Positions 5,591 to 39,382 of a stretch of 64,000 nucleotides of DNA are shown here, piece by piece. The position numbers were made by a program, and so were the translations under genes. How positions within the stretch are numbered: the stretch's first letter is position 1; each line of letters opens with the position of its first letter. The stretch covers positions 21,420,281 through 21,484,280 of the forward strand of contig NC_088861.1 in the NCBI RefSeq assembly GCF_963853765.1, written 5' to 3'. The notes under the pieces were generated by a model that had not been told where the DNA came from, ran no database searches, and saw only the letters and a program-made list of their open reading frames with translations. The DNA comes from Magallana gigas (lineage: Eukaryota).

Positions 5591-5960
5591 CAATTTCTAG
5601 AGAGAGACACTGGATGAAATATCTGGTTTCAGCGCTGCGGAAACCCTTTGGAAACTCTGCGGAAACTTAAGGTTACTTTAAGTTTCCGACAGGTTTCAGC
5701 ACGGAAACTTCAAGTTTCATTAAGTTTCCGCAGTGCTGAAACTTAGGCTGTCCATGAATCCAAATGGTTTCCGCAACGGAAACTTACTGAAACTTGATGT
5801 TTCTGCATAGTTTCAATCTCCATATACGTTTGGGATACATATTGTTTACAAATGGTTTCCGCGACGGAAACTTACTGAAACTTGAAGTTTCTGCATAGTT
5901 TCAACCTCCATATACAATTGGGAAACATATTGTTTACAAAGGGTTTCCGCAACTGAAATT
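5590..5960. repeat. Family-E palindrome-rich tandem repeat (GTTTCCGC..GCGGAAAC motifs, ~125-130 bp unit), directly abutting the family-A array.
   Basis: Repeated GGTTTCCGC(A/G)(A/T)CGGAAACTTACTGAAACTTGAAGTTTCTGCATAGTTTCAA units. Related to the array at 11040-11526. Confidence 0.6.
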
Positions 5961-8900
5961 TACTGAAACTTTTTATATTTTTGCTTTCACAAAAGCTGAG
6001 CAAGGTTTCTACTTTATGTAAAAACAAAACAATTTCAAACAGTTCCAAATTTATTTTGTTCAAAAATCTGAAATTGTTTCCAATAATAAATAAAATACAG
6101 CCAAGATACAATAATGGAGAAACATCCATATGGCAATTCCCTTATTAGGGACTTTTATTTAAAAAAATGATAAAATTGCACAAGAAAAAAAACTCCCATA
6201 GAAATCTTTACATTTGTATTTTTTTTCATCTCGATTAAATGCCTATCAAATCTCCCTTTAAAAATGCATCAAAGATCTTACTTTTAAAAAAATATGAATG
6301 CAATTTACAAAATAACTGCACGTACATGAATAAACAAAGAAAACTTCACTGTTACATGAACATGATACACTTGTCTCAATTTGTTTTGAACTACAATGAA
6401 TATGTACACCATAACATATTTTTGAAAAGTCTAAAGTATCCATCTTTTAAAAAAAAAATACACTACAAGATAGTAGTTGACTATAGAGGTTTGACCCAGA
6501 TTTGATTTGAATATGTCAATAAATTCCAAAATGAGGTCAAAGTGACCCACTTACAAGTTGGGATAAACCTTTTCTTTGTTAGTAATATAATCTAATGTTT
6601 TACAATAGAACAGGATTTGATATCATTTTTTTGATAATCCATTAAGTCAAAAGTGAACTTTTCATTTCCACCCATGATGTACCAACTGATCAGATTTTAA
6701 TATCATAAGCCTGTCAGTATTTAATAGATGACCCAGAGGGAGATATGAAAAGCTTGTTGGCCAATAAAAAGCTAACAATGGAGCAGTCTGTCAAATCATG
6801 TGCAAAAATATGATGTACACATTTAATAAATTATGCTGATTGCAACACACTTCATTCCTGATGAATATTCTTCTTTACACATGGTTTACCTTCCTACATT
6901 TCACTACTTTACCTACATTAATATTTTTAAATCCAAGACATGAAGTAAAATATGCATTGTTTATATATGACAAGTATTACTACATGTACATGTACTTGCT
7001 TTTTGTAGCATGAATGTATAAAATACAAAGTATCACACAGATCATTCACCTTACAATTCTCATCAATACCAGCATTTTACTTATGATATAAAAGCTAATT
7101 CCAATTATATATTAGTTACATAACACAGTTTAAAATAAAACCCACATGGAAACAACTTTCCATCCAAGTAATTTTGTTATATAAAAATTGTAATACATGG
7201 GGTATATGTTGTCTTTATATATTTTCATATACGACATAATTGAATATTGTTTGGTGTATTTTATCATTTCTATGACCCATGCATTCATCTCCTAATGCAG
7301 TGTTTTTACATTTAAGATTGGTTTCTTAATTTTTCATATATTGCTGCAAATAAAATTCAAGTTATCAAGAAATGTTTAAACAAAGAAAATGGAAAAAAAA
7401 GTAGTTAACACTTATCAACTTGGAGGTGTGAGGATATATGTTACATGGAGTCTAATATTTTATGCAATATTTGCAAATATAACAAATTATTTAAGAAAAT
7501 GAAAGTTAATATCTGCAAGGTCTAATCAATCATTTAATAAGTCAAAACCATGTGATTTTCTAAGATTCTAGCTTACAGACAGACATTGTAATATACTGGT
7601 ATTTGATCATATAAGAAAAGTACTTTTATAGTTTATAGGTTTTTTGAAATGAGAATACTTTACAGTTAAAAAGTCTTGTTCTGCAGAGGTTTAGTCGGGT
7701 CGTAGAGATGTGTCCATTCGAATCAATAAGGAGTGTCCTTGGCTGTTGTTGATGAAACCCGAGTCGTAGTTTATGGAAATAGGCCTTTTTGGGGGACTTT
7801 CGAGCATTGTCCAGACCGGTGAAGCACTCATATGATCACATCATGGCTACAGCAGACTTAGTAGTTCTGGACAGTGGTAGCATTAAAATTCTTCTTCTTG
7901 CGATGAACTTGTTCCTCTCACTGGGCTGTACTTTATGTCTGTTCTATTTATCTTAAACATGAATAATAAAGTTTCATTTAGATTTGTAAACAATAAACAT
8001 AAGTCATTCAGCCTAACATGTAATAAAAGCATTCTGAATAAAATTCTGAATAAAGAAGCTACTATGCAGTTGCCAGTTGCTGTTTAAACTATGTCATATA
8101 ATGACTACAGTAGTATCTGGTCTCAAATGTTTCATTTTATGTTTGAAGCTATGTTATTTTCATTTTGATTCAATTATTGTCTGTTGAACAATGGAAAAAC
8201 TTATCAACAATAAGTGTGTTTCACCCCCCCCCCCCCCAATCAACCTCCTTTTCAAGAACTTAGACCTGGATTTCCCAAAAATTACTACAGTAAATTATAA
8301 ACATCCAACACATGTATAAGTTAATGGTGAAAATAATCAATTTCAAAGCAATACCTTGCGTTCACATCGTCCAGCTGGTCAAAACATTCACCCGAATCAC
8401 CGAACAGAGGATGCAACTAATCACCGGAAACATTGACTTTGTATGCTGTCAATACTGGAAAAGATAAACGTGAAAGATTTCATTTTCCGGATTTAATAAT
8501 AAATTTTTTTCGTTACATTTAGAGTTTGTAAATCGTAAAATGTGCGAAAGATTCATTGTTCGTATTGTTTACCAACCAAGCATTCATATATTAGGGACGT
8601 TTATATAATTATATATGTGTATACCCTGGATAATCTTGATCATCATGCATATAAAGTTGGTTAATGGTTAACTTGGTCAAAACGTATATTTAAAAGAGAT
8701 ACGGTAATAAAAATTAAAACGCCGAACCAAGTTTGAAAAAATGACGCCATCTTGATTTGATGGCGCGAGATCTCGTTTACAAATGAGAGATAAATTAGAG
8801 CCTTGAAAATGTTATTGGGAGTATCTATGTTGTGAATTAAGTTACCTTGACATGAGTTCTTCGTTCCTGCATTATCTCCTTGTTGTAGAGGCTATTAATG

Positions 8901-10005
8901 CTTCTCAATTCTCCATTTTACAACAGCACCTTCTTGTCCATTTTAACCTTCGCTCGGAATCATAAAGTGCGCCAATACTGACCAATCAGAACCCGCTAAA
9001 TCTTGGAAAAGTGCATCTTTGGATAGTTTAAAATGAATAATGTTTAATCAAAATTATCATTTTTTACCGAATAGTATACTTTTTACATGTATACTTATTT
9101 TAAATAAGAACTGTCGGAGTCAGTATTTCCTGGTTAAATACGACAAAGTATTGGCGTGTGTTTGTATTTGTAACACGTGATTAACCAAAAAAAAATGGCC
9201 GACCGTTTGTTTACAAATGTCTAATGAAATTAAACAAGTTTTAATGAGACATATGTATCAGATTTTGTCTTTAACTATATTAAATTATTTACATGTACTG
9301 ATGATTTTGCCAAACTAAATATGATAGAGCCATATATAGTTGACTGACAAGTAAGTCTTGACTTGTCCAATTTTCACCGCGATTCTAAGCACGGTCATAT
9401 TCTTATTCAAAATATAGAGGTGTGAAAAATATTATGTTTATCACAGAGCAGGTTCTGCATGAACACACAGAAATCACAAATATAATTAGATGCCGATCAA
9501 TTAACGGGGTCCGGTTAACAGCGTTCACCCGTACGGTGAATTTACAACTACGATGAATTGATGGCAATTATTTTACAGTTACACATGTGCACTGATTGGT
9601 CATGCGATGAACAGTACGTTAAGAATACTTATGAAATTAAGATACAAACGCGTTAAACAAGCCGGGAAGTAAGACGTACACGTCGGACTGATATATAAAC
9701 AAAATATAATTTTAATTATTTGGTATACTTTCTACATCAAATGTATACGAATGTATAATCAAATTTTAAAAATGGGATTAAAATCACGTGCACCACATGG
9801 CTAGTGCTGGATTTTAAACTGATTTTGTAATATAACGTATAACTTCAGTAAAATTATAAATAATGCTTATTATATCTTATAACAGAAACATGTGCATGTT
9901 TCATAAACATGTACATGTTTCATAAACATGTATCAATATCTGTGTTTACAGTACAGAAAGTAAATACAAAGTATAGAAATGCACGAATCACATAGGCGTC
10001 GAACC

Positions 10006-10175
10006 GGGGGGGGGGGGGGGGGGGGGTTAGTGCAAAGTTAGACTTAACCAATAGGCATATAGCCCCCCCCCCCCCCACTTTTTCTCGCCGGAAATGTAAT
10101 TGTTCCTAAATTTACCTTGAAAGATTGAGAAGTTGGAGTAATAGGCATACTAGCCCCCCCCCCCCCCCCCCCCCC
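10006..10175. repeat. Homopolymer-rich duplicated segment: G21 (10006-10026), C14 (10063-10076) and C22 (10154-10175), each next to AATAGGCATA(T/C)(T)AGC units.
   Basis: Read directly from the sequence. Confidence 0.8.
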
Positions 10176-11039
10176 ACGGATTAGGATTTTCATGATTTTG
10201 GGAATTAGGGTTTTTTCTCAATATTTCTGAGGATTAGTCCAGCCCCCCCTTTCAATTTGCTTTCGACCTCAGTGAATCATGATACAGTCATAAATTATTA
10301 TATTAGACTCAAACTCCAAGTGGGTTTTACTTGTTATTATCAACTGTAGACTTTTTTACAAAAAAATTCCTGTGTACATGTGTTGGCGTGGTATTAAAAA
10401 AGAAATAAATTAGCTCTAAACTTCAGGCTGTACGAATATTTGGTACGATTTGTAAAAATTTACAACGACTTTACCTTAATTTGTTTGCTTAATTAGTTAC
10501 TGTACCTCAGGTTCATTCAAATGATAACTAAATGATTTAAGAAGGAGTGTTACAAAATAGGTATATTAATTTTACTAAATAATTATGATTTACTTATCAG
10601 TTTTACTAACTCAGGTACACACAAATTGAAAAAAAATTCCCGCCGGGCTCCAGTTATAAACTCGCGCTTCGTACTGTGTATATGTTATGTAACAGTCTTT
10701 TGTTCACTCCTGACAGAAAAAACCCTGCAATCCACACAGAATATACAGGAAAATCACAGAGGAGGTCACCTGGACAAAGAATGTATACACATGTATACAC
10801 GTGCCCGAGTACCTAAGATTAATGATTTCATCATATGCATTAAACAAGATCGGACATCAGTTTTTCTTTTCAAATTCAATTAATTACTTAGTAAGGTTCT
10901 TAATCGCCTTATTTGCCACATTTGAAGATAGTTACATGTTTACATATAGTTTCAGTCACGATGAAACCTTACTATACATTTTAGTCTGTACGGATTCATT
11001 ATCATTAGGCTAGAATTAAACTTAAACCTGTTGAAAATA

Positions 11040-11524
11040 AATGATATCACTATTAAACTCAAATCAATTTTAGTAATAGTTTCAGCAATGCGTAAACCAT
11101 TTGGAATCTTAACTTAAAGTTTCAGCATACTGAAACCTAGCGGAAATGTTCTGAAACTGATTGATATTTCCATAATAATTTACACAACTTTTCACATGAT
11201 TCAATTTTAGTTTCCGCATTGCGGAAACCATCAGGAATCTTAACTTAAAGTTTCAGCATACTGAAACCTAGCGGAAATGTTCTGAAACTGATTGATATTT
11301 CCATAATAATTTACACAACTATTCACACGATTCAAATTTAGTTTCCGCATTGCGGAAACCATCAGGAATCTTAGACTAAAGTTTCTGCTGACTGAAACCT
11401 AACGGATACTTGCTGAATCGATATAATGGTTTCCGCATTGCGGAAACTATACATGAAACTTCAACTTCAAGTTTCAGCAAGGTTTCCATATAGTTTCAGT
11501 TTTGCTGAAACTTGATTTTTCATC

Positions 11525-11526
<2 letters not shown>
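11040..11526. repeat. Family-E tandem array, about 3.5 units of ~128 bp, carrying the GTTTCCGCATTGCGGAAACC palindrome.
   Basis: Three near-identical units: ..AGTTTCAGCATACTGAAACCTAGCGGAAATGTTCTGAAACTGATTGATATTTCCATAATAATTTACACAAC.. Confidence 0.8.

Positions 11527-11559
<33 letters not shown>
11527..11559. repeat. (GA)n microsatellite terminating the family-E array.
   Basis: Direct observation. Confidence 0.95.
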
Positions 11560-11561
<2 letters not shown>

Positions 11562-12039
11562 TAAAAATTATTTTCAAACGGGTAATAATACTGGATGATT
11601 ATTTTCAAGCTTTCAGAGAGCATGGTTGGACAGTGCATTAGTTTTAATGCATTCTTCTTTTTTTTTTTTGCTTTTAAGGGTGTATGTCTGTTCTCTATTC
11701 TAATGGAACACAGCCAAGAGAAGGGTGGTTATTGGGGGTGTTTAGCACCTCTTCAAACAATGGAATGTTTTGATACAACTTAGATTGTCCTGGGGGCAAG
11801 TAAAGTAAAGAATTCATTCAATGCACAACTAATTGAAGTAAATTTTCCAAATGATATAAAATTCTTAATAATACACTCTTAAAATGTTATGAAATTGTGT
11901 TGTTACAGCTAGTTATATTGACAATTTAAGATACAACCAAAATATCTTTATCTCAAGAATGACTTTTTCTTCTTTGGAACAATTTTTTATCAAATACCAT
12001 TCATTATTCAATTCATCACAATTTTAAAAATGAACATGC

Positions 12040-12230
12040 ATAGAAAAGCGTAGTAATGCAAAGTAATGCCATGTAATGCCAGCATTACACTAGGTTTTGG
12101 AAAGTAATGCATTACATTACCATTACTTGTAATGCTAAATTTGTGGCTTAACACATTACTAGCATTACTTTGAAAACATCAAATGCATTGCAATGCATTA
12201 CCATTACATTTAGAATTACCCCAAGCCTGC
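12040..12230. repeat. Cluster of GTAATGC / GCATTAC half-palindromes, including the perfect 12-bp palindrome GTAATGCATTAC, and (CCATTA)n.
   Basis: At least 8 occurrences of GTAATGC or its reverse complement within 190 bp. Confidence 0.6.
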
Positions 12231-12485
12231 TGTATGCAATATTTTGCCAAAAAATAACTAAGTTCAAAAGCTGGTATTTTTTTTTCATAAATTATCAGAA
12301 ATCCAAATCCTAGCAATATGCACGCTACTGATATATATGCAATTGATCTGCAAAAGAACTTCATATCCTGTAGGAGGAGTTATCCATATAATGAGGGTAC
12401 CCTTTTGGAAGCAGCCCGCCCACCCGCCATTTTCACCATTTCAATAACCGGATTTTTCCGTTGGAAAACCCGGTTAAAAATTCTC
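12225..12485 (+). mobile_element. Family-D element, truncated copy with about 1 monomer plus a 3' region ending in the hairpin AACCGGATTTTTCCGTTGGAAAACCCGGTT.
   Basis: Matches the monomers and 3' region of the copies at 20466-21130 and 21237-21725 (TATGCAATATTTTGCC..ATGAGGGTACCC..GCAGCCCGCCCACCCGCCATTTTCAC). Confidence 0.6.
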
Positions 12486-12897
12486 ATCCTCATCTTACAC
12501 CTTTCAAAAAGTCTTGAAAATCTTTGCTGCATTCACTTTCAATTTTGTTTTTAATTTTAAACATTTTCTCTCCTTTCCCTCCGCAGAGGTCTGACCAAAT
12601 CTCCCGATCTTGACACTGCCATTTTATTCTGCTCCAGACACAACATGGTGCACATGACATAGTTTCAAAGGGCAACTACTCTAATTTTAAAGTCATTTCA
12701 AAGGACAACTTCTCAACAAAAAGAACATTTACAGAGCAGTCATAGTATTAAATAATATGAAATGTTGATAAGTATGTCAAACGCAGTGCTGAATATAAAT
12801 TCTCACCAGCTGGACATAGAAATATCTCCGGCAGTCAAGTGTCCTGTTTTAACCGCTTTTTAATTAATTTTAATTACTGTTAGTAGTAACATGACAT

Positions 12898-12900
<3 letters not shown>

Positions 12901-12976
<76 letters not shown>
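12901..12976. repeat. Compound microsatellite (TA)21 followed by (TG)16.
   Basis: Direct observation. Confidence 0.95.
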
Positions 12977-12977
<1 letters not shown>

Positions 12978-13033
12978 TAACATGAATTTTTTCAAATTTG
13001 TACGGCTAAGAAGATTTTAAATCCCTTGAAATT

Positions 13034-13258
13034 TTACTTTAAAAGAAAATTTTCATTTACACCACAATAGATATTAGTTTTGCAAAGAAACCTGACTGAT
13101 TTACCACTGAGACTGAGGACATTAAAATTTTCATGTGGTCCCAATATGATTAGATCAGGACCAAACACCACTCGTGCAGTTTTCTCCAGGTAATTATAAA
13201 CTTGTACAGCTGTGTTACATGGGCAACGGTAAGTCACGACCCTTGTCTTATCTCTTCC
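13034..13258 (-). CDS. Putative terminal coding exon of a minus-strand gene. Translation: [74 protein letters not shown]. Function unknown.
   Basis: A 74-codon open frame is preceded by the acceptor GTTTATTTACAG| with a polypyrimidine tract. It is phase-0 compatible with the upstream mini-exon. Confidence 0.4.
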
Positions 13259-13445
13259 CTGTAAATAAACAAAAATATTACCTTGAATATCAAATGAAAA
13301 AAGTTAAAACCTAAATATCATACTTAGTCTATTACATTTGTTCTTATGACTTGTATTCATAAAAATGTATTTTCATTTGATAATATCCTTGTAGTTACCG
13401 AAAGGTTTTGAGGATCAATTGATTGTTCAAAGTAAGCCATCTTAC

Positions 13446-13477
13446 GTATATCACCTGTTCCCAATCCACCTCCATTT
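13446..13477 (-). CDS. Possible upstream exon, AG|AAATGGAGGTGGATTGGGAACAGGTGATATAC|GTAAGA, encoding MEVDWEQVIY with a Kozak-like AAATGG start. It may be the start-codon exon of the 13034-13258 gene.
   Basis: Flanked by AG and GTAAGA, and in phase with the downstream exon. Short, so weak support. Confidence 0.25.
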
Positions 13478-13854
13478 CTACAAAATTAAAGTAGATAGAA
13501 CTTTCCTAATGGGACTCCCACAAGGCAAATTTCAAATGGAACAAATATGAATTAAAGTAACTAAAGTTGTTGAATCATAAATCTTTCTGATTCAAATTAA
13601 ATAATAATCTAGAATATTGTAAAAACAAGAGGCCAATAGGCATGAGTACCATAGCCCATACATGAAACTGTGGAGGAGTCTCATAAATGCATTTAATTCA
13701 GTTTCCCCCTGTCTGAATTCATTTGGAAAGGACTCTTAATCCTATAGTTTAGCACAGTACCTATGGCTGTTTCAGAGTTTATGACATACTACTGAAAAGG
13801 TGCACAGCTTCCATACAAAGTATTTTCCCCCAGGTATGTTAACTTTCAACAAGA

Positions 13855-14140
13855 GGCCCATGGGCCTCATTGCTCATCTAAGGAACAATAGATATGATAA
13901 AATCAGCTTAATGTAGTCTAAATACAAACTATCTAGTAAACAATTTAGTATAATACATGTAAATCATGTATAAAAAAAATACATTTTTCCTCTGGATATC
14001 CTTATGTTTATTATCATTATTCCCTTTTCTAACAAGATGATTTTTTAGTCATATCACATGTTGAGCATTGCAGTTCTCAAAAAGATCCTAAACAATTGTT
14101 TATATATAGGATATAAACCTTCATCAAACTCTGAACCCCT
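13855..14140 (+). repeat. Copy of the family-A 5'-arm segment (ACAAGAGGCCCATGGGCC .. GATCCTAAACAATTGTTTATATATAGGATATAAAC).
   Basis: ~280 bp aligns with 42451-42745, which is the 5' arm of the complete family-A element. Confidence 0.6.
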
Positions 14141-14279
14141 TGTGAGGTCCCAGTATTGTCTAAGAGCCAAATTCTCAACAAATGTCAAAATGATTGCATA
14201 TATTAAGTAAAAATATATAATATAACATTTCAGCTTTTGTGAACATTTAAAATGTGTTCCTTTGTAATACTGGATTCCA

Positions 14280-14525
14280 AATATGGCCCTACCCTACTCA
14301 AAATTTTGATTTGAACACAATCTGAGATTGCTTTCAATTAAGTTTCAGCTTTCTTAGGAAAATATTTTTTTTAGAAAAAAGATTTTTAAGGATTTTCCCC
14401 ATATATTCCTAAATAAATTTTTGCGTCTCCCCCTGGATCTTGTGACCCCACCCTACCCTCAGGGTCATTATTTGAACGAACTTGCAGCTACCCTACCTGA
14501 GAATGCTTCCACACAAGCAGGGATG
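14280..14525 (+). repeat. Diverged family-A monomers, about 1.4 units.
   Basis: Retains CCCACCCTACCC..GGGTCATTATTTGAAC..CTACCCTACCTGAGAATGCTTCCACACAAG. Confidence 0.5.
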
Positions 14526-14529
14526 AGGT

Positions 14530-14700
14530 CAATTACAATGGAAATTAATTAATTAAATTACAATTACTTGCTTAAATTCTTCAATTAAATTACCATTACC
14601 ATTACCATTACAAGAGTTTTCAAATGTAATTAATTAAATTACAATTACTCTGCAGATGTAATTAATTAAATTAGCAATTACATTTTGAAATTCATAAAAA
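14530..14700. repeat. AATTAC / CCATTAC motif cluster (AATTAATTAAATTACAATTAC repeated, (CCATTA)3).
   Basis: Direct observation. Shares (CCATTA)n with the 12040-12230 cluster. Confidence 0.5.
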
Positions 14701-15396
14701 TTTAATAAAACTATGATTTATCTACAACACATAAACATTTAAGGAGGTATGTCTATAATGTTAATAAAATTTCGTCATAATCACAATACTTTCACTGTTT
14801 GATAATTTGCTAACTACTCTGATAATTAACAATTTTTGGAAAGAAATATAGTGTTGGTTTTACTGTTTATTTCAAAAGGCAGGTACCGGTAGTCACAATA
14901 TGAAGGTGTCCCATATCACCTTGATATTCAATAAACATTTGAAAGTCATATCCCCTAACCTACACCTATCATGTCAATAGAGAATAATACATACCCTTTT
15001 CCATATCACAGCTAGTATCAGCCTGAAACTCCAATATCAGCCCGAGGGATGACATTGGTCGATGGCTGATACAGGCTTTAATATGGAAAAGGGTATTTTA
15101 TTTTATATTTATTACATACTTAGTAATAAAAATTTTAAACAGCATCAACTTGAACAAATTGATATCAAATATTATTTGAAAATAGTCTGTACATGTCTTA
15201 AATGAAAATATGAGATCTTACTGTTTTATCAAACATGCAGCTACAGAACCAGAATTTCCTCGTGTTTTGAAATCAACTGCTCTAAAACAAGTTTTCAACT
15301 GCATTTAAAAATGTCCACTGTAAGAAATGTTAAATTTTTTTGTCTGTTAACATGCAGAAACGGAAAAAGGCAGAGGAGTTCGACATGGAGTGTGAC

Positions 15397-15561
15397 ACAA
15401 GTTTCAGTCTTCAAGTCAATTGGTTTCTGAGAAGAAGATTTTTAAAGATTTATTCTATATATTTCTATGTAAAACTTCAACCTCCCATTTCGGCCCCATC
15501 CTACCCCTGGGGGTCATGATTTTCAAAACTTTAACTCTACACTACCTGAGGATGCTACAAA
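15397..15561 (+). repeat. Family-A solo monomer.
   Basis: Full-length match to the monomer consensus. Confidence 0.7.
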
Positions 15562-16809
15562 TTAGGTTCAAAAACAGTCAAGGATCACATGTACAGTAGG
15601 AGTAATAATGACGAAAAAATGTTAAGTTTACAATACAATAAGTTGTTAAAGTTGGTTTCTGGAAGAACAGACTTTGAAAATTTTCTTAATAAATATTGAC
15701 AAATTTTTTACTTTTTTAATCTTTAGTTTTAAAGATCTGTGTACAAACATAGAATCGTGAGCAAACCTCTGTATCTTGCTTATAATTCAAAGCTTAACAC
15801 TCAAATATGGTTAGTAAATAGAAATTGTAAACAATTAAACACAAGAAACATGCACTATAACAAATAAAGAACACAATTTATTTTTTCGAAATGAATCATA
15901 TATATACATGTATATACCTACATATTTCCGTCAGCGATATCAAACTCTATTTAAACTGAATAAACTCAAGAAAATGCCGAGCATCTCAACAAAACCTATT
16001 GCATTAATCTACCATTACGCAAAAGATAATGCCGAATTACCGATAGAATGAATTGTATTTCAGTACTTTTTTGATACATCAGATTTTGCTTAATTTATGC
16101 AGGTAAACAGTTAACTCTTTGATTTACCGAAGTCTCTGTTTGATTTGATATGTATAAACCACGAAATACAAACGATAGTTCCCAGGTTACAAAGCATAAA
16201 TAATGAAAATGAAACGAAAATCAGAACAAGCTAACACCAATGTCATGTGTGAAAACTATCAACGCATTGAAATATTTAGCTTCAATTTACTTCACAAAAT
16301 CGGCACCAATATATTTTGCATGTTTCAAAAATTTCCCTTCATACGCGAACTGTTGCACAACAAGCAAATTCATCATAGTCAGATCGACCCTTTTTCATAT
16401 AATGTCATGGCTGCTTTAAACAAAGAACCTCGTTTTAGAAGTATGGAATACCGAGTCTTGGTAAAATGGGTATGCAAACCCGAGCCGTGGCAAAATAAAA
16501 GCCGGGGCAGATCGGCAATCGTCAATTCCAAATACGCATTATTTTGCAGCAATATTTACAGCAAATACAAATATACTGGTCCATCAAATATTCTAAAATT
16601 TAATGAGATTGGCAGATTAATAACTGCCAATCTTTTGTTTTGCCCAGGCCAAGTCTTGCCTATCCATTTTACCGGATGCCACATCCAAAGCTATTAAACT
16701 GATTGAAATACGCCTTTCCTTTATTATTATTTTCGTAATAACTCAGATTTGAAACAGAATTAGCTCTTAATTTTTGCAATTTATATTTTCCTTCCCATAA
16801 GGATAATTT

Positions 16810-33989: not shown

Positions 33990-34151
33990 CATCCTCTTTA
34001 TATTAGGCCAAAAAAAAAAATATGTGTGTTTCCGGTTTCCCGACCGACCCCTTTTTTTCCCGGCCAAATTACCGACCCTAAACTTTTTTTTCGGATTTTA
34101 CCGGAAAAATTTGTCTTCTGCGTCTCCGGTTTCAACATTTACAAAATCAAA
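33990..34151 (+). promoter_or_regulatory. Putative TATA-less promoter / 5'UTR of gene A, with multiple CCGGAA/TTCCGG (ETS-like) motifs and an AAAATGGCGGCG (YY1/M8-like) motif overlapping the ATG.
   Basis: TTTCCGGTTTCCCGACCGACC, CCCGGCC, TTACCGGAAAAAT and TCTCCGGTTTC all lie within 130 bp upstream of the start codon. Confidence 0.35.
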
Positions 34152-34564
34152 ATGGCGGCGACTGTAGCTGCAACGAGTCTGTTAGCGATAAGAGTTAAAA
34201 AATGCAAGCACATTTCAGAGAAGAACGCAATTTTGTGCCTGGAAAACCGTAGAACTCTTCTTGATATTTTTATTGATTTACACGGTGATTTGCCAAAAGA
34301 CTCGAGACTTTCAATCGTTTGTAACAACTCGACAGATCCATCTAAAGGAACATCGTTCGACGTATACCCCAATATGCTGGTAGGCGATCTTGTTGGGACT
34401 TTTGCCATTAAAAGTATTGAATATTCCTGTTCAAAGGAAGAGCAAACAGTAGCATTGGGTGAAATCATAAATAATGCAGCTGAGGCGGCCACCAGTAAAA
34501 CGGTCGATGCATTTCAAGTCCTCATGGCGGGAGGCAGAAAGAATGTTTCATTGAAGACATCAAG
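34152..34564 (+). CDS. Gene A exon 1: MAATVAATSLLAIRVKKCKHISEKNAILCLENRRTLLDIFIDLHGDLPKD...KNVSLKTS(S).
   Basis: ATG in Kozak context CAAAATGG. Donor AAG|GTTTGT, with phase 2 matching exon 2. Confidence 0.6.
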
Positions 34565-35088
34565 GTTTGTATTAAAAGAGAGCTAGTTGTATAATTCATG
34601 GCATGTATAAATGAATTTTACCAGCTCCTTTAATCAGGCAGGGAAGTGTTAAATTATGATTGTCAATGTACACTGAATAACATAAGGTCATTGGACATAT
34701 AATTTTGTTAATCTACTAGAATATTTACAATTTTAGAAAGCATATGCCTTTATTATTTTCATTCTATAGTCTGTAGTTTTCATATCTTGCATCTAAATTT
34801 TGAAAATTTACACTTCCAAATTAAGTAATTGAATATGAATGGTACAGTTGATTTTAAACATTTTTATTATTTATACTGAACAAATGGTGTTTTATTTAGA
34901 AATTGAAGTTTGAATAAAATGTGTGTGTCTGAGGCCTGACAGATATATGTCAATCTGTCCATCCTTTTTTGGCTGGTTTTAAACTGTCTCTGTATTGCTT
35001 TAATATCATTAATAACAATAATTAATGTCTCAATGGTGTGTACTCAAGATTTACAAGGCCTAAAGAATGTTTATGTATCTTTTTTCAG

Positions 35089-35218
35089 TTGCGGTGTTAA
35101 AGATGGCATCAGTAGAAAGGATGAAATTTATAATAAGCTGGTTGAAAACTTTTTCAATTCAAGAAACCTAGATTTTCCAAGAGCTTCCTGTGAACAAGAT
35201 GGATCATACTTTGTACAG
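35089..35218 (+). CDS. Gene A exon 2: (S)CGVKDGISRKDEIYNKLVENFFNSRNLDFPRASCEQDGSYFVQ.
   Basis: Acceptor TCTTTTTTCAG| and donor CAG|GTCTTT. Phase is consistent at both junctions. Confidence 0.6.
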
Positions 35219-37021
35219 GTCTTTATGCTTAATATGTTATTAACTTTCAAATTTTAGAAAACAAAACAGTTTTAACATGACAAACAAGGATTCTTAAGGT
35301 CTGATAGTTTAAAGTCAAATACACTGTGTTTTTAATTGTCATTCTGTATAAAATAAATGTGTTACTCGGTATTCCAATGCCAAAAAGTTTTTTAAATGTT
35401 TTTCCCATACCATATAAGTTATATTTTACTTTTATTTTTAATATTAGAGCAGGAAAAAAGGTATACATGATATATATATATATATAGCTCTTACTTACAC
35501 TAGTATGCTATGCACTGCAGCACGTCAAAACTATAACATGTACAAATAATAGATGCTTGCTTAATATTAACCTACAAACTAGTATAATTTATAACACTTG
35601 TAGTTCTGTGGTCTTGTCTTGATACTGTATCCAGCTTACACACCTTTTATTAGGTCTTTCCACCTTTCAGGTGAAAGACCTATTGTATTTCTTATGTTTT
35701 TTATTATTCTTATTTTTTTTCTTCTCTTTTTTTCCAGGGACAGCTTTTTTATTTCAAGAGATATTGAAACAATTTTTTCTTTATGTTAATGGCCATTAAA
35801 AGTTATGGTACCAAATGACCCTTTGCTTGATAATTCCTAGAACTTACAAAGTTATTGCCCTTGTGTACGAAAAGCTTGTTATCGTTACTCCTCTGAAACC
35901 ATAAGAGATAGAAACTTGGAACTTTTACCAATGTCTTCAGTACACATAGAGGGTTCTTCAATCTATTCATATTGAAAGGATCTGAGCCCCCCTTCTTGTA
36001 GTTATTGCCCCTGAAAGTATTAAGGTTTCCAAAAAATCACTTCAAATTTTTTTATTATTTGACTTAGAGACTTCGGACCACTTGGGATGGAAGCGTCTAC
36101 CTTGGCCGAACAAAATGACATAAAGGTCAAAGGTCAAGGTCATCTGAAAATCTCTTAATTAATGAGTTTTTAGATCTCTTTTGTTTAGGGTGATAGAGAA
36201 AAACTTTTTCATGGATGTAGTAGTACATCATAAGACATTTTAAAATATAACCCTTTGACCCTTTCCATATTACAATTATAGAGTTATTGCCCCTATTGCA
36301 CAAAATGCTTGTTATCGCTACTCCTCATTAACCGTTAGAGATAGAGACTTCAAACCTTTACTAATGTATTCAGTACACTTGGACGCTCCTTCAATCTATT
36401 CATACCGAAAGGGTCCAAAGTCCCTTTATAGCAGTTATTACCCCTGAAAGTTTCGAACATTCATTAAAAACACAAATAACTTTTGAATCAATAATCATAG
36501 ATACATCGGATCACTTGGTATTGAAGCGCCTACATTGTCAGATCAAAATGACATAAAGGTCAAAGGTCAAGGTCAAGCAATACAAATTTGCAAACTTAAT
36601 CGTTTGACACTTTTATATGAAGTAACGCAGAAAAAATACTTCATTGTATTGAAACAATCTTATTTTAAACATAAAACAATGAGGTGGAAAGACCTCTAAT
36701 TGTTCGAGAACAATTAGTCTACTAGTTTAACATGGCGTTCTGGTGATATCCACTTTCAATTCTATTTATACTTAATGTTCTCCTCTAGTATAGAATATAG
36801 TATATTATATATTTTCCATTTTTGTAAAAACATTAGTGTTGCCTTAATCTATACCTTGCACAAACTATAATATTTATATCAAGCAGCACCGATAAGATTC
36901 TGTGATTTGTTTATAATAAGATTTGTACCCTGTTTGATTCATATACCAGTATCAGACTCAATAAAAATTTATATTTAAGGCCCTAGTATATAAAATTATT
37001 CATGTGTTCTACTTATTTCAG

Positions 37022-39382
37022 GTTCTCTGCAATGCATTGTGGTACGTCACTAATCATCATCAAACAATAAATGATGCCTCACTAAGGAAACAAACTCTAC
37101 TGCCAGTTCCAAATATCTTTAATGACTACGATGGATATAACGAAGTAAAAAGGAAAAAACTAAAATCCTGTCCATTGTCTGCATCACTTCTTGATAGCCA
37201 TGCCCAGGCTCTATATTCTTTACTGATGAAGCCTGTGGTCAATAGTTCAGTCTCTTGGAAACAAGGTGCAGAAGATATTAAGCAGTTAGCAGAATGTTTT
37301 ACTGCTTACAAAGAATATCTAGTTGTTCAGAATAAAACTGCCCAGGAAAATCAGAGTAAGTTGTATCCTGTTCGGACCATTGACAAAGAAGCCACCATTG
37401 AACACAGATATGGTAATTTGTCAGGTCAAATTAGAGAGAAATATGTGGACATAAATGAAGCTGTAACCAGTGCTGGAATTATGGCACCAGTGGTTTTTGA
37501 CGAATACAAACATTTGGATAAGCCTTTTGAAAGTAACTTGGAGCGATTCCGCTATTTTCAAGATCTTCAGTTGAAATGTCCTGTTGATATCATTCGTTTT
37601 AGTCCTGGTGGATCGTCAGTCTCAACAGTCTGTATAGTCCAAGTTTCCAATCAAAATAGATCAAACGCTGAAATGTTGACACAAGGTGCTCGATTACTAC
37701 AAACTGTCAGACCAAATTTGAAAGAATATCATACACGAGCTCAGAGACGATTGTTTAAAGAAAAACTGAAAAATGTTGCTTCTGTATTACCATCTGTTGC
37801 AAATCTCATTTATCAAGAGCTGGCATTGGATTTTTCTGCAGCAGAACACCCTGTAACCCAAGAGAGACTTAGACTTATTTTTCTTGGTCAGAATGACCTC
37901 ATTCCTGATTTAAGAGTGCTCAACCCAGGAAGACCAAACAACAAATTTGATGTTTTCTTTGAAACCTTATCAAAAGAGGTAGAAAAGATTACAGCTGCAG
38001 ACGATAGACGGCATGGGACAGCACATTTATCAGAATTTATCTCATTGGAAGAAATGGTTGAGAAAACAGCCAAATCTTGTCCAGAGGGCACTGATATTCC
38101 ATCAAAAAGCTTGGTGAGGTTACAATTTGCCCCTAGGAACCCTTATGCAAGGTCTGCATTGAACTTTACAGGAAAGATTGATGTGCAGTATAAAGTGCAA
38201 AGAAGACAGCTTCGCATTGACCATCCAGATGATCACTATTGCAATGCACAATTCAGATATCTTAAAGAGATGGCAATTGAGATGAGAGAGCATTGTGCTT
38301 TATTGTTCTGTGACGATAAGGCAAAAGTGAGTATTGGAGAACCTGGAAGTCCAGTTTCAACAGGTGTGAGGGGGAAGAAAACCATAGTGCCATCAAGTTC
38401 CACTTTAGTATCTTTAGATCATGACATGACTAAAGCATCCTTGACCCCCTCAGTTATTTTGCACTGTAAAATTCCTGGTAGCATTAATGACTCATTTGTC
38501 CGTGGTCAAGTAACAGTGACAGTTAATGATTCTGTTTTTCAAATGTCATCTCCGTTTCGTCATGCAGTTTCCATTATAAAAGCCTTTGAACAACAGGGAC
38601 ATTTTCCTTATACATTGCTTAAATTCACAGATGGTGGAACTGATCAGAGAAATACACTTGAAAGTGTGAAGTGTGCTTCAATTTGTGTATTTAAGGAAAT
38701 GAATCTTGACATGATGATATTGGCAAGATGTGCACCCGGTCACAGTTATGTTAACCCTGCTGAGAGAGTTATGAGCATTCTAAACTTGGCTCTGCAAAAT
38801 GTAGCATTAGAACGTAAAGAGTCAACAGAAAAAATGAATAAAGTTCTGAAAAGCTGCAACAGTATGGCAGATGTAAGAAATCTTGCTGAGAAGACTCCAG
38901 AAGTAAAAACTGCATGGATAGAATCAGTTGAGCCAGTTGCATCAGTGCTCCGTAACCGTTTCTTGAGATTGAAGTTAAAAGATGATCCAGTAAAGGCCCT
39001 AGATCCAGTTAGTGACCAAGAAATTGATATTTTGAAGCGCCATCTTAGAGAACTTTTCCCAAATCTTGATTTGAAAAAATTACAAAAAGTGCACACAAGT
39101 AAAGTTGAGAGTTATCAGAAGTGGATTGAAACTCATTGTAGAAGTAGACAATACACGTTTCAAATAAGAAAATGCAGAGATGAGAACTGTTGTCTTCCTC
39201 CACGCTTGAGAGATGAGCAAATGCAGTGGTTACCTGATCCAGTTCTAAATGAGACTAAAGATCATTACAAATCCTACAATGAAGTCAAAGGAACAGAAAC
39301 AAATGAATCAGACAGACCTTCTTTAAAAGCAAAACCGATCAAAGAAAAGAAACTGAACCTTAGAGCTACTGTGAATGTATAA
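37022..39382 (+). CDS. Gene A exon 3, a long intronless exon of 786 codons + stop (VLCNALWYVTNHHQTINDASLRK ... NLRATVNV*). Spliced product is about 967 aa with no recognisable domain; Cys-rich near the C-terminus. Possibly TE-derived.
   Basis: Acceptor CTTATTTCAG| at phase 0. It is the only long ORF in the window (792 codons in the track). Confidence 0.7.
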   Translation, partial: VLCNALWYVTNHHQTINDASLRKQTLLPVPNIFNDYDGYNEVKRKKLKSCPLSASLLDSHAQALYSLLMKPVVNSSVSWKQGAEDIKQLAECFTAYKEYLVVQNKTAQENQSKLYPVRTIDKEATIEHRYGNLSGQIREKYVDINEAVTSAGIMAPVVFDEYKHLDKPFESNLERFRYFQDLQLKCPVDIIRFSPGGSSVSTVCIVQVSNQNRSNAEMLTQGARLLQTVRPNLKEYHTRAQRRLFKEKLKNVASVLPSVANLIYQELALDFSAAEHPVTQERLRLIFLGQNDLIPDLRVLNPGRPNNKFDVFFETLSKEVEKITAADDRRHGTAHLSEFISLEEMVEKTAKSCPEGTDIPSKSLVRLQFAPRNPYARSALNFTGKIDVQYKVQRRQLRIDHPDDHYCNAQFRYLKEMAIEMREHCALLFCDDKAKVSIGEPGSPVSTGVRGKKTIVPSSSTLVSLDHDMTKASLTPSVILHCKIPGSINDSFVRGQVTVTVNDSVFQMSSPFRHAVSIIKAFEQQGHFPYTLLKFTDGGTDQRNTLESVKCASICVFKEMNLDMMILARCAPGHSYVNPAERVMSILNLALQNVALERKESTEKMNKVLKSCNSMADVRNLAEKTPEVKTAWIESVEPVASVLRNRFLRLKLKDDPVKALDPVSDQEIDILKRHLRELFPNLDLKKLQKVHTSKVESYQKWIETHCRSRQYTFQIRKCRDENCCLPPRLRDEQMQWLPDPVLNETKDHYKSYNEVKGTETNESDRPSLKAKPIKEKKLNLRATVNV

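Follow-up and report, generated by a model that had tools for sequence, protein, structure and literature searches.

We analyzed a 64,000-nucleotide stretch of the Magallana gigas genome (contig NC_088861.1, positions 21,420,281 to 21,484,280 of the forward strand; hereafter the window, numbered from its first letter). The interval 34006 to 41376 of this window very probably belongs to the Zator superfamily of class II (cut-and-paste) DNA transposons and is a decayed copy of an autonomous element; the placing relies on transitive homology and not on a Repbase or Dfam consensus. Zator, a superfamily of eukaryotic DNA transposons that reportedly goes back to Bao et al. 2009, is to our knowledge among the least characterized DDE superfamilies: its structure has not been solved, and Pfam covers it very poorly. 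The gene inside the element, at 34152 to 39382, had originally been predicted to encode a ~967-amino-acid (aa) protein without recognizable motifs, its very long single coding exon being taken as typical of a retrogene or of a domesticated transposon-derived protein. The transposon origin stood up to analysis, but neither the retrogene nor the domesticated part of that interpretation did, and we conclude that the locus is an ordinary, dead or dying mobile element, not a host gene.

Boundaries of the element

The true unit is larger than the predicted gene: the whole element in the window covers 34006 to 41376 (~7.4 kb) and is bounded by terminal inverted repeats (TIRs) and a target site duplication (TSD). 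A search for paralogues flanked by such repeats had been proposed as a check on the original prediction; it proved decisive, and it was positive at the window locus itself, where the 28-nt sequence GGCCAAAAAAAAAAATATGTGTGTTTCC has exactly two matches in the window, one per strand, with none expected. The features that define the ends are as follows.

34003 to 34005, + strand: left TSD, TTA, the same trinucleotide as at 41377 to 41379
34006 to 34033, + strand: 5' TIR, GGCCAAAAAAAAAAATATGTGTGTTTCC, perfect over 28 nt and extending to 34039 at 94%
34034 to 34151, + strand: 5' subterminal region and 5' untranslated region (UTR), with the conserved motif CCCGACCGACCCC at ~34040 to 34052
41015 to 41348, + strand: 3' UTR and subterminal region, with a (CT)n run, A-runs and the conserved motif CCTACCTACCC at 41316 to 41326
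41349 to 41376, - strand: 3' TIR, the exact reverse complement of 34006 to 34033
41377 to 41379, + strand: right TSD, TTA, pairing with 34003 to 34005

The 5' TIR sequence is conserved in mussel, Mya and Ptychodera elements. Counting the window copy, matching 3-bp flanks were found in five of five independent copies, the other four being these.

Mytilus edulis copy (L003, CAJPWZ010001115.1), 9802 to 16728: flanks TTA
Second mussel copy (ENA contig L004), ends read, coordinates not fixed: flanks TAA
Ptychodera flava copy (L007), 5902 to 10850: flanks TTA
Mya arenaria copy (L006), 7787 to 14662: flanks AAA

All termini were GGCC...GGCC, and all five copies had the form GGCC-A(9-12)-..TGTGTGTTTCCGGTAAC. 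About 45 nt at each end, including the subterminal CCGACCGACCC and CCTACCTACCC motifs, are near-identical in oyster, mussels, Mya and Ptychodera, whereas the transposases of the same phyla share only ~55% identity. The conserved termini point to either very strong constraint in cis or horizontal transfer. The 5' subterminal region and 5' UTR may bind the transposase or act as a promoter. Outside the element, ~350 bp beyond its right end, lies a tandem repeat at 41729 to 42072 (161-bp unit, 2.1 copies, 90% matches).

A three-exon gene with conserved introns

The three exons, the GT..AG splice sites and the intron phases had been predicted correctly, and the same introns are present in mussel and hemichordate elements. 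Exons 34152 to 34564, 35089 to 35218 and 37022 to 39382 join in frame to give 2,904 nt, or 967 codons plus a stop, as listed here.

34152 to 34564, + strand: exon 1, aa 1 to 138, encoding an N-terminal ubiquitin-like beta-grasp domain
34565 to 35088, + strand: intron 1, GT..AG, phase 2
35089 to 35218, + strand: exon 2, aa 138 to 181, kept in L003, L004, L006 and L007
35219 to 37021, + strand: intron 2, GT..AG, phase 0, also present in genomic copies L001 and L002
37022 to 39379, + strand: exon 3 as read in the window, aa 182 to 967, with a helical region, the DDE core and the first Cys cluster

Exon 3 lies in a 792-codon open run, the sole open reading frame (ORF) of such size in the window. 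Its length is beyond chance, since at a stop frequency of 0.062 per codon only ~1e-17 such runs would be expected in the window. Homologues span all three exons, and the positions and phases of both introns recur in the Mytilus edulis copy (L003), the bivalve-like ENA contig (L004) and Ptychodera flava (L007).

Decay of the window copy

A protein search recovered 56 strong homologues; they come from Priapulus, the hemichordate Ptychodera and the bivalves Mytilus, Mya, Pecten, Saccostrea and Ruditapes. Full-length members of the family are 1,100 to 1,200 aa long and run ~150 aa past the window stop, a position that all full-length homologues read through. Homologue P0001, more than 99% identical to the window ORF, shows no break there. 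Its genomic contig L001 (Logan assembly, intron 2 retained) is 99.7% identical to the window and lacks three features of the window copy: a TA at 39380 to 39381, ~1.16 kb at 39760 to 40917 and ~1.08 kb at 35652 to 36727. These features and the remnants of the ancestral coding sequence (CDS) are arranged as follows.

35652 to 36727, unstranded: nested insertion in intron 2, ~1.08 kb, not ancestral; L001 joins 35651 to ~36726
39380 to 39381, + strand: 2-bp TA insertion (frameshift) that makes the TAA stop at 39380 to 39382; the window reads GTGAATGTATAACCACG where L001 reads GTGAATGTAACCACG
39382 to 39759, + strand: 126 further codons of the ancestral CDS, in a frame shifted by +2, with the start of the C-terminal Cys-rich domain (CxxC..C..C..CxxC)
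39760 to 40917, unstranded: nested insertion splitting the CDS, ~1.16 kb, absent in L001, composed of a satellite and a (GACGCACG)n run
40919 to 41014, + strand: last 31 ancestral codons (40919 to 41011; KKQYKTILPLCKTCEGNGRVPFIQRPYGKKN) and the stop, located by tblastn with P0001, P0008, P0012 and P0029

The predicted length of ~967 aa and its 3' end therefore have to be revised, since the stop is secondary, created by the 2-bp TA insertion relative to L001. Judged from the sequence, the intact product is ~1,124 aa long, because the ancestral frame continues at 39382 to 39759 and at 40919 to 41011; the translation of the former segment is 97.7% identical to residues 792 to 920 of P0001. The window copy is damaged and would encode at best a C-terminally truncated 967-aa protein without the C-terminal Cys-rich domain. 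An intron at the frameshift or across the 1.16-kb insertion was considered and rejected: there is no GT..AG, and L001, which still carries intron 2, lacks both features.

The insertion at 39760 to 40917 contains a 172-bp satellite in 5.6 copies (39816 to 40784) and the (GACGCACG)n run (40792 to 40880), and it ends in the GC-rich inverted 11-mers GTCCCCCGCCG and CGGCGGGGGAC; no clear TSD was found at its ends. It resembles satellite-carrying mobile elements described in oysters. The insertion in intron 2 has a 14-nt inverted repeat, AGGTCTTTCCACCT (35652 to 35665; reverse complement at 36682 to 36695), a 3' hairpin CTAATTGTTC/GAGAACAATTAG followed by CTAG, and two ~400-bp internal repeats. It sits at an A|T (or T|T) site and looks like a nonautonomous Helitron/Helentron-like element.

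The product is a DDE transposase

The original prediction had found no motif in the product, and database searches were similarly silent: the window protein had no Pfam match (E ≤ 1) and no match to sequences in the Protein Data Bank (PDB). Among the 36 closest members Pfam returned only noise, including one rve_2 match at E 0.12; in seven long members, searched for extra domains, it returned only subthreshold PHD and zf-CW. A tblastn search of the catalytic core against plasmids (E ≤ 10) found nothing. A DDE triad is nevertheless conserved in the product, where it sits on an RNase H-like fold. In the family alignment, the near-invariant motifs are C-D612-D613-K-A-K, L-D-H-D, T-D718-G-G-x-D and A-P-G-x-S-x-x-N-P-x-E762-R. 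The core spans aa ~585 to 775, and the catalytic residues are all present in the window copy (D612/D613 at 38312 to 38317, D718 at 38630 to 38632, E762 at 38762 to 38764), with a spacing of roughly D-105-D-44-E. A first Cys cluster in exon 3 comprises H886, C899, C904 and C905.

An AlphaFold2 model (mean predicted local distance difference test [pLDDT] score of 75.7) places these motifs on what is predicted to be a canonical compact RNase H-like DDE core. Strand β1 (606 to 613) ends in D612/D613 and is followed by β2, β3 and α1; β4 (712 to 717) precedes D718; then come α2, β5 (745 to 750) and α4 (760 to 772), which bears E762, with β5 leading straight to α4 without an insertion domain. The solved structures closest to the core were the Mos1 catalytic domain (score 9.3, 164 residues aligned) and the SETMAR transposase domain (9.0), followed by Sleeping Beauty (8.0) and retroviral integrases (7.9 to 8.3). 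Foldseek searches of the PDB gave weak matches only, with Mos1 at E ~2e-3; the top match, to FERM, was spurious and was caused by the N-terminal ubiquitin-like domain. In the ancestral transposase, the domain order is an N-terminal ubiquitin-like domain, a helical region that is probably DNA-binding, the RNase H-like DDE core and C-terminal Cys-rich modules.

Probable assignment to the Zator superfamily

With a TSD of 3 bp, the superfamilies to be considered are PIF/Harbinger, Zator, AcademX and CACTA. The family motifs resemble those of ISAzo13 transposases, a lead that we then tested. A search with the pattern PPGTSKWNxIEH in back-translation yielded 120 loci from bacteria and archaea, whose ORFs of ~400 aa belong to the Pfam family PF07592 (DDE_Tnp_ISAZ013; E ~1e-135). 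A hidden Markov model (HMM) built exclusively from bacterial ISAzo13 ORFs matched two members of the oyster element's family, P0062 (E 2.6e-6) and P0085 (E 3.9e-4), while the best match to reversed sequences was 1.1; in the alignment, the D, D and E of the HMM fall on the DDKAK, DGG and NPxE motifs of the family (D612, D718 and E762). The same two members exceeded the PF07592 gathering score of 26.9, P0062 with 30.9 bits (E 1.8e-7) and P0085 with 33.6 bits (E 2.8e-8), over the segment homologous to the window DDE core. Two further members were below threshold. Of 63 divergent members, 5 matched PF07592, and no other Pfam family recurred among them.

Both of these members are clear relatives of the window protein across the DDE core: P0062 is 38% identical to it over 782 aa (E 7e-177) and P0085 is 41% identical over 502 aa (E 4e-135). 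When the family core was aligned to ISAzo13 with hhalign, 243 columns were collinear (P 0.0099; score 29.6, with controls at 14 to 20); a greedy run (mact 0.05) gave no interpretable probability. According to the literature, the bacterial ISAzo13/TP36 insertion sequences have their eukaryotic relatives in Zator, and the TSDs of both are 3 bp long (PMC10045372, PMC5718144). Zator has also been recorded in bivalves, with C. gigas entries in Repbase (PMC10294476). We file the element under Zator because of the PF07592 link through its relatives and because the literature ties ISAzo13 to Zator, with 3-bp TSDs in both.

Several observations weigh against this assignment. The link to ISAzo13 is transitive, running through members 38 to 41% identical to the window protein; the latter and its 36 closest relatives match neither PF07592 nor the NCBIfam ISAzo13 model themselves (four full-length members, searched at E ≤ 10, matched no NCBIfam model at all). 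The reciprocal search, in which bacterial ISAzo13 ORFs were scanned with the family HMM, did not reach significance (best E 0.1), and profile-profile comparison gave a P of no better than 0.01. At the DNA level, no TIRs were found at the Priapulus locus (L005), and one of the five TSDs is AAA, not TWA (W being A or T). The GGCC/TWA pattern is also typical of PIF/Harbinger. Excision and integration chemistry, DNA binding by individual domains, transcription and splicing, finally, are inferred.

Proposed transposition

The ancestral element is ~5.1 kb long, with one three-exon gene for a transposase of ~1,124 aa. The following scheme of excision and integration is taken from established DDE cut-and-paste transposases. 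The enzyme would bind the 28-nt TIRs and the conserved subterminal motifs, excise the element and insert it into a target cut with a 3-bp stagger, for which TWA is the usual site; repair of the cut would yield the 3-bp duplication. Since its TIRs are intact, the window copy could still be mobilized, at most in trans, by intact copies.

Alternative explanations

A domesticated gene, in which the 967-aa protein or a longer spliced form has a cellular function, would account for the long open ORF, the conserved introns, the intact catalytic residues and the existence of NCBI and UniProt gene models for family members. We give this reading only a very slight chance. The gene remains enclosed by perfect 28-nt TIRs and a TSD; the family is high in copy number and patchy across phyla, with homologous copies in unrelated contexts; and the window copy carries a frameshift and a CDS insertion relative to a copy 99.7% identical to it, besides the insertion in intron 2. 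Alternatively, the truncated product could be expressed as a regulator of transposition that competes for the TIRs, by analogy with the KP-type repressors of the P element. Exons 1 to 3 are open, the splice sites, 5' end and DDE core are intact, and only the C-terminal Cys-rich domain is lost; however, nothing sets this configuration apart from neutral decay, and the two further nested insertions mark an element that is accumulating damage, which leaves the repressor decidedly improbable. As for a retrogene, a processed copy of a multiexon gene, the long 2.36-kb exon is all that speaks for it. Its probability is negligible: two spliceosomal introns are retained and conserved across phyla, and the flanks are TIRs with a 3-bp TSD and not a poly(A) tail with a long, variable duplication, so that the structure of the locus already refutes it.

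A further alternative concerns the superfamily. The element could be a TIR transposon of the PIF/Harbinger (PHIS) or of an undescribed superfamily, its similarity to PF07592 reflecting a general kinship of compact DDE cores. TWA 3-bp TSDs together with TIRs that begin with GGCC or GG are the classical PIF/Harbinger signature (PMC4482050), and the lack of a direct Pfam match in the window protein, the nonsignificant reciprocal HMM search and the hhalign P of 0.01 would all fit. The TWA duplication (TTA or TAA), present in four of the five copies, does not discriminate, the Zator TSD also being 3 bp. Sequence and coding capacity do. Even with cutoffs as permissive as E ≤ 10 or 0.01, neither DDE_Tnp_4 nor Plant_tran turned up in the window protein, in the 36 close members or in the 63 divergent ones; no member matches an IS5-type or other transposase Pfam model, PF07592 being the only family to recur, and two members exceed its gathering threshold. 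More than 240 columns are collinear with ISAzo13, through HPD..AQF, DxKxK, DHD, DGGxD and PGxSxxNxxE. PHIS transposases have ~400 to 500 aa, against ~1,100 aa in the window family, and the second Myb/SANT ORF of PIF/Harbinger is absent from 34006 to 41376, where the other ORFs of at least 85 aa are antisense or inside the nested satellite. PIF/Harbinger itself was rejected on these two grounds, the lack of IS5-type similarity and the coding capacity, and we regard the alternative as a whole as improbable.

Family spread and annotation

A profile search for the family of the oyster element recovered at least 8,725 clusters at 50% identity in public data (E ≤ 1e-3); the family is large, mobile and multicopy. 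The Mytilus copy (L003) is an intronic insertion: the exons on either side of it belong to an EP400-like gene, with SNF2 and EP400_N/HSA parts, that is encoded on the opposite strand. The gene model of this copy has an extra third intron, at 15272 to 15812, near the position of the oyster frameshift.

The superfamily is a known, if obscure, one that is already catalogued in the oyster genome, and the window copy is ordinary. A bolder view is that the family forms an undescribed, very large metazoan Zator-like clade, marked by the ubiquitin-like N terminus, the two conserved introns and the ~45-nt termini near-identical between molluscs and a hemichordate, which could be active in oysters (in intact copies such as L001) and have spread horizontally; we consider this unlikely. 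Most eukaryotic Zator-like proteins of the family are labeled uncharacterized because PF07592 recognizes so few of them (0 of the 36 closest and 5 of the 63 divergent members).

The result matters mainly to annotators, who should mask the locus as a Zator-type DNA transposon instead of keeping it as an orphan protein-coding gene; public gene models on it are transposable-element artifacts. One example is P0055 (UniProt A0A8W8JTD6, Magallana gigas), annotated as a DUF6589 domain-containing protein, which is chimeric: its first ~290 aa correspond to exons 1 and 2 plus a piece of exon 3 (window 34152 to 37543; 95 to 98% identical), and the remainder is an unrelated DUF6589 protein. Of some interest to specialists are the full-length members of the family, its well-delimited TIRs and TSDs, the unexpected ubiquitin-like domain in the structural model, and the conservation of the termini between phyla; a better profile could be built from this material, or the family could be tried in transposition assays.

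Comparison with known systems

The likeness of the window protein to Tc1/mariner transposases (Mos1, SETMAR and Sleeping Beauty; IS630-like) is at the level of the fold only. The window TSD is 3 bp and not TA, there is no Pfam Tc1/mariner domain, and the window protein departs from these transposases in D-D-E spacing and in its N- and C-terminal domains. AcademX elements come closer in several respects: they have 3- to 4-bp TSDs, transposases of ~1,000 aa or more and a Cys-rich, zinc finger-like region, are ~5 kb long and are abundant in bivalves (PMC7165386, PMC10294476). We rejected AcademX nonetheless, as there is no XPG match in Pfam and no α-helical insertion domain between β5 and α4, and the window termini are G...C (GGCC...GGCC), compared to Y...R in AcademX (PMC7165386). 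With PIF/Harbinger, the element shares a compact DDE core in addition to the 3-bp TWA duplication and the GG/GGCC start of the TIRs (PMC4482050).

Compared with bacterial ISAzo13, the transposase of the window family is ~2.7 times longer (~1,124 versus ~400 aa) and bears a ubiquitin-like domain at its N terminus and Cys-rich modules at its C terminus; Pfam misses most members, the window protein among them. What the element has in common with Zator and ISAzo13 is the 3-bp TSD, the organization as a single-gene element bounded by TIRs, and a compact DDE core without an insertion domain.

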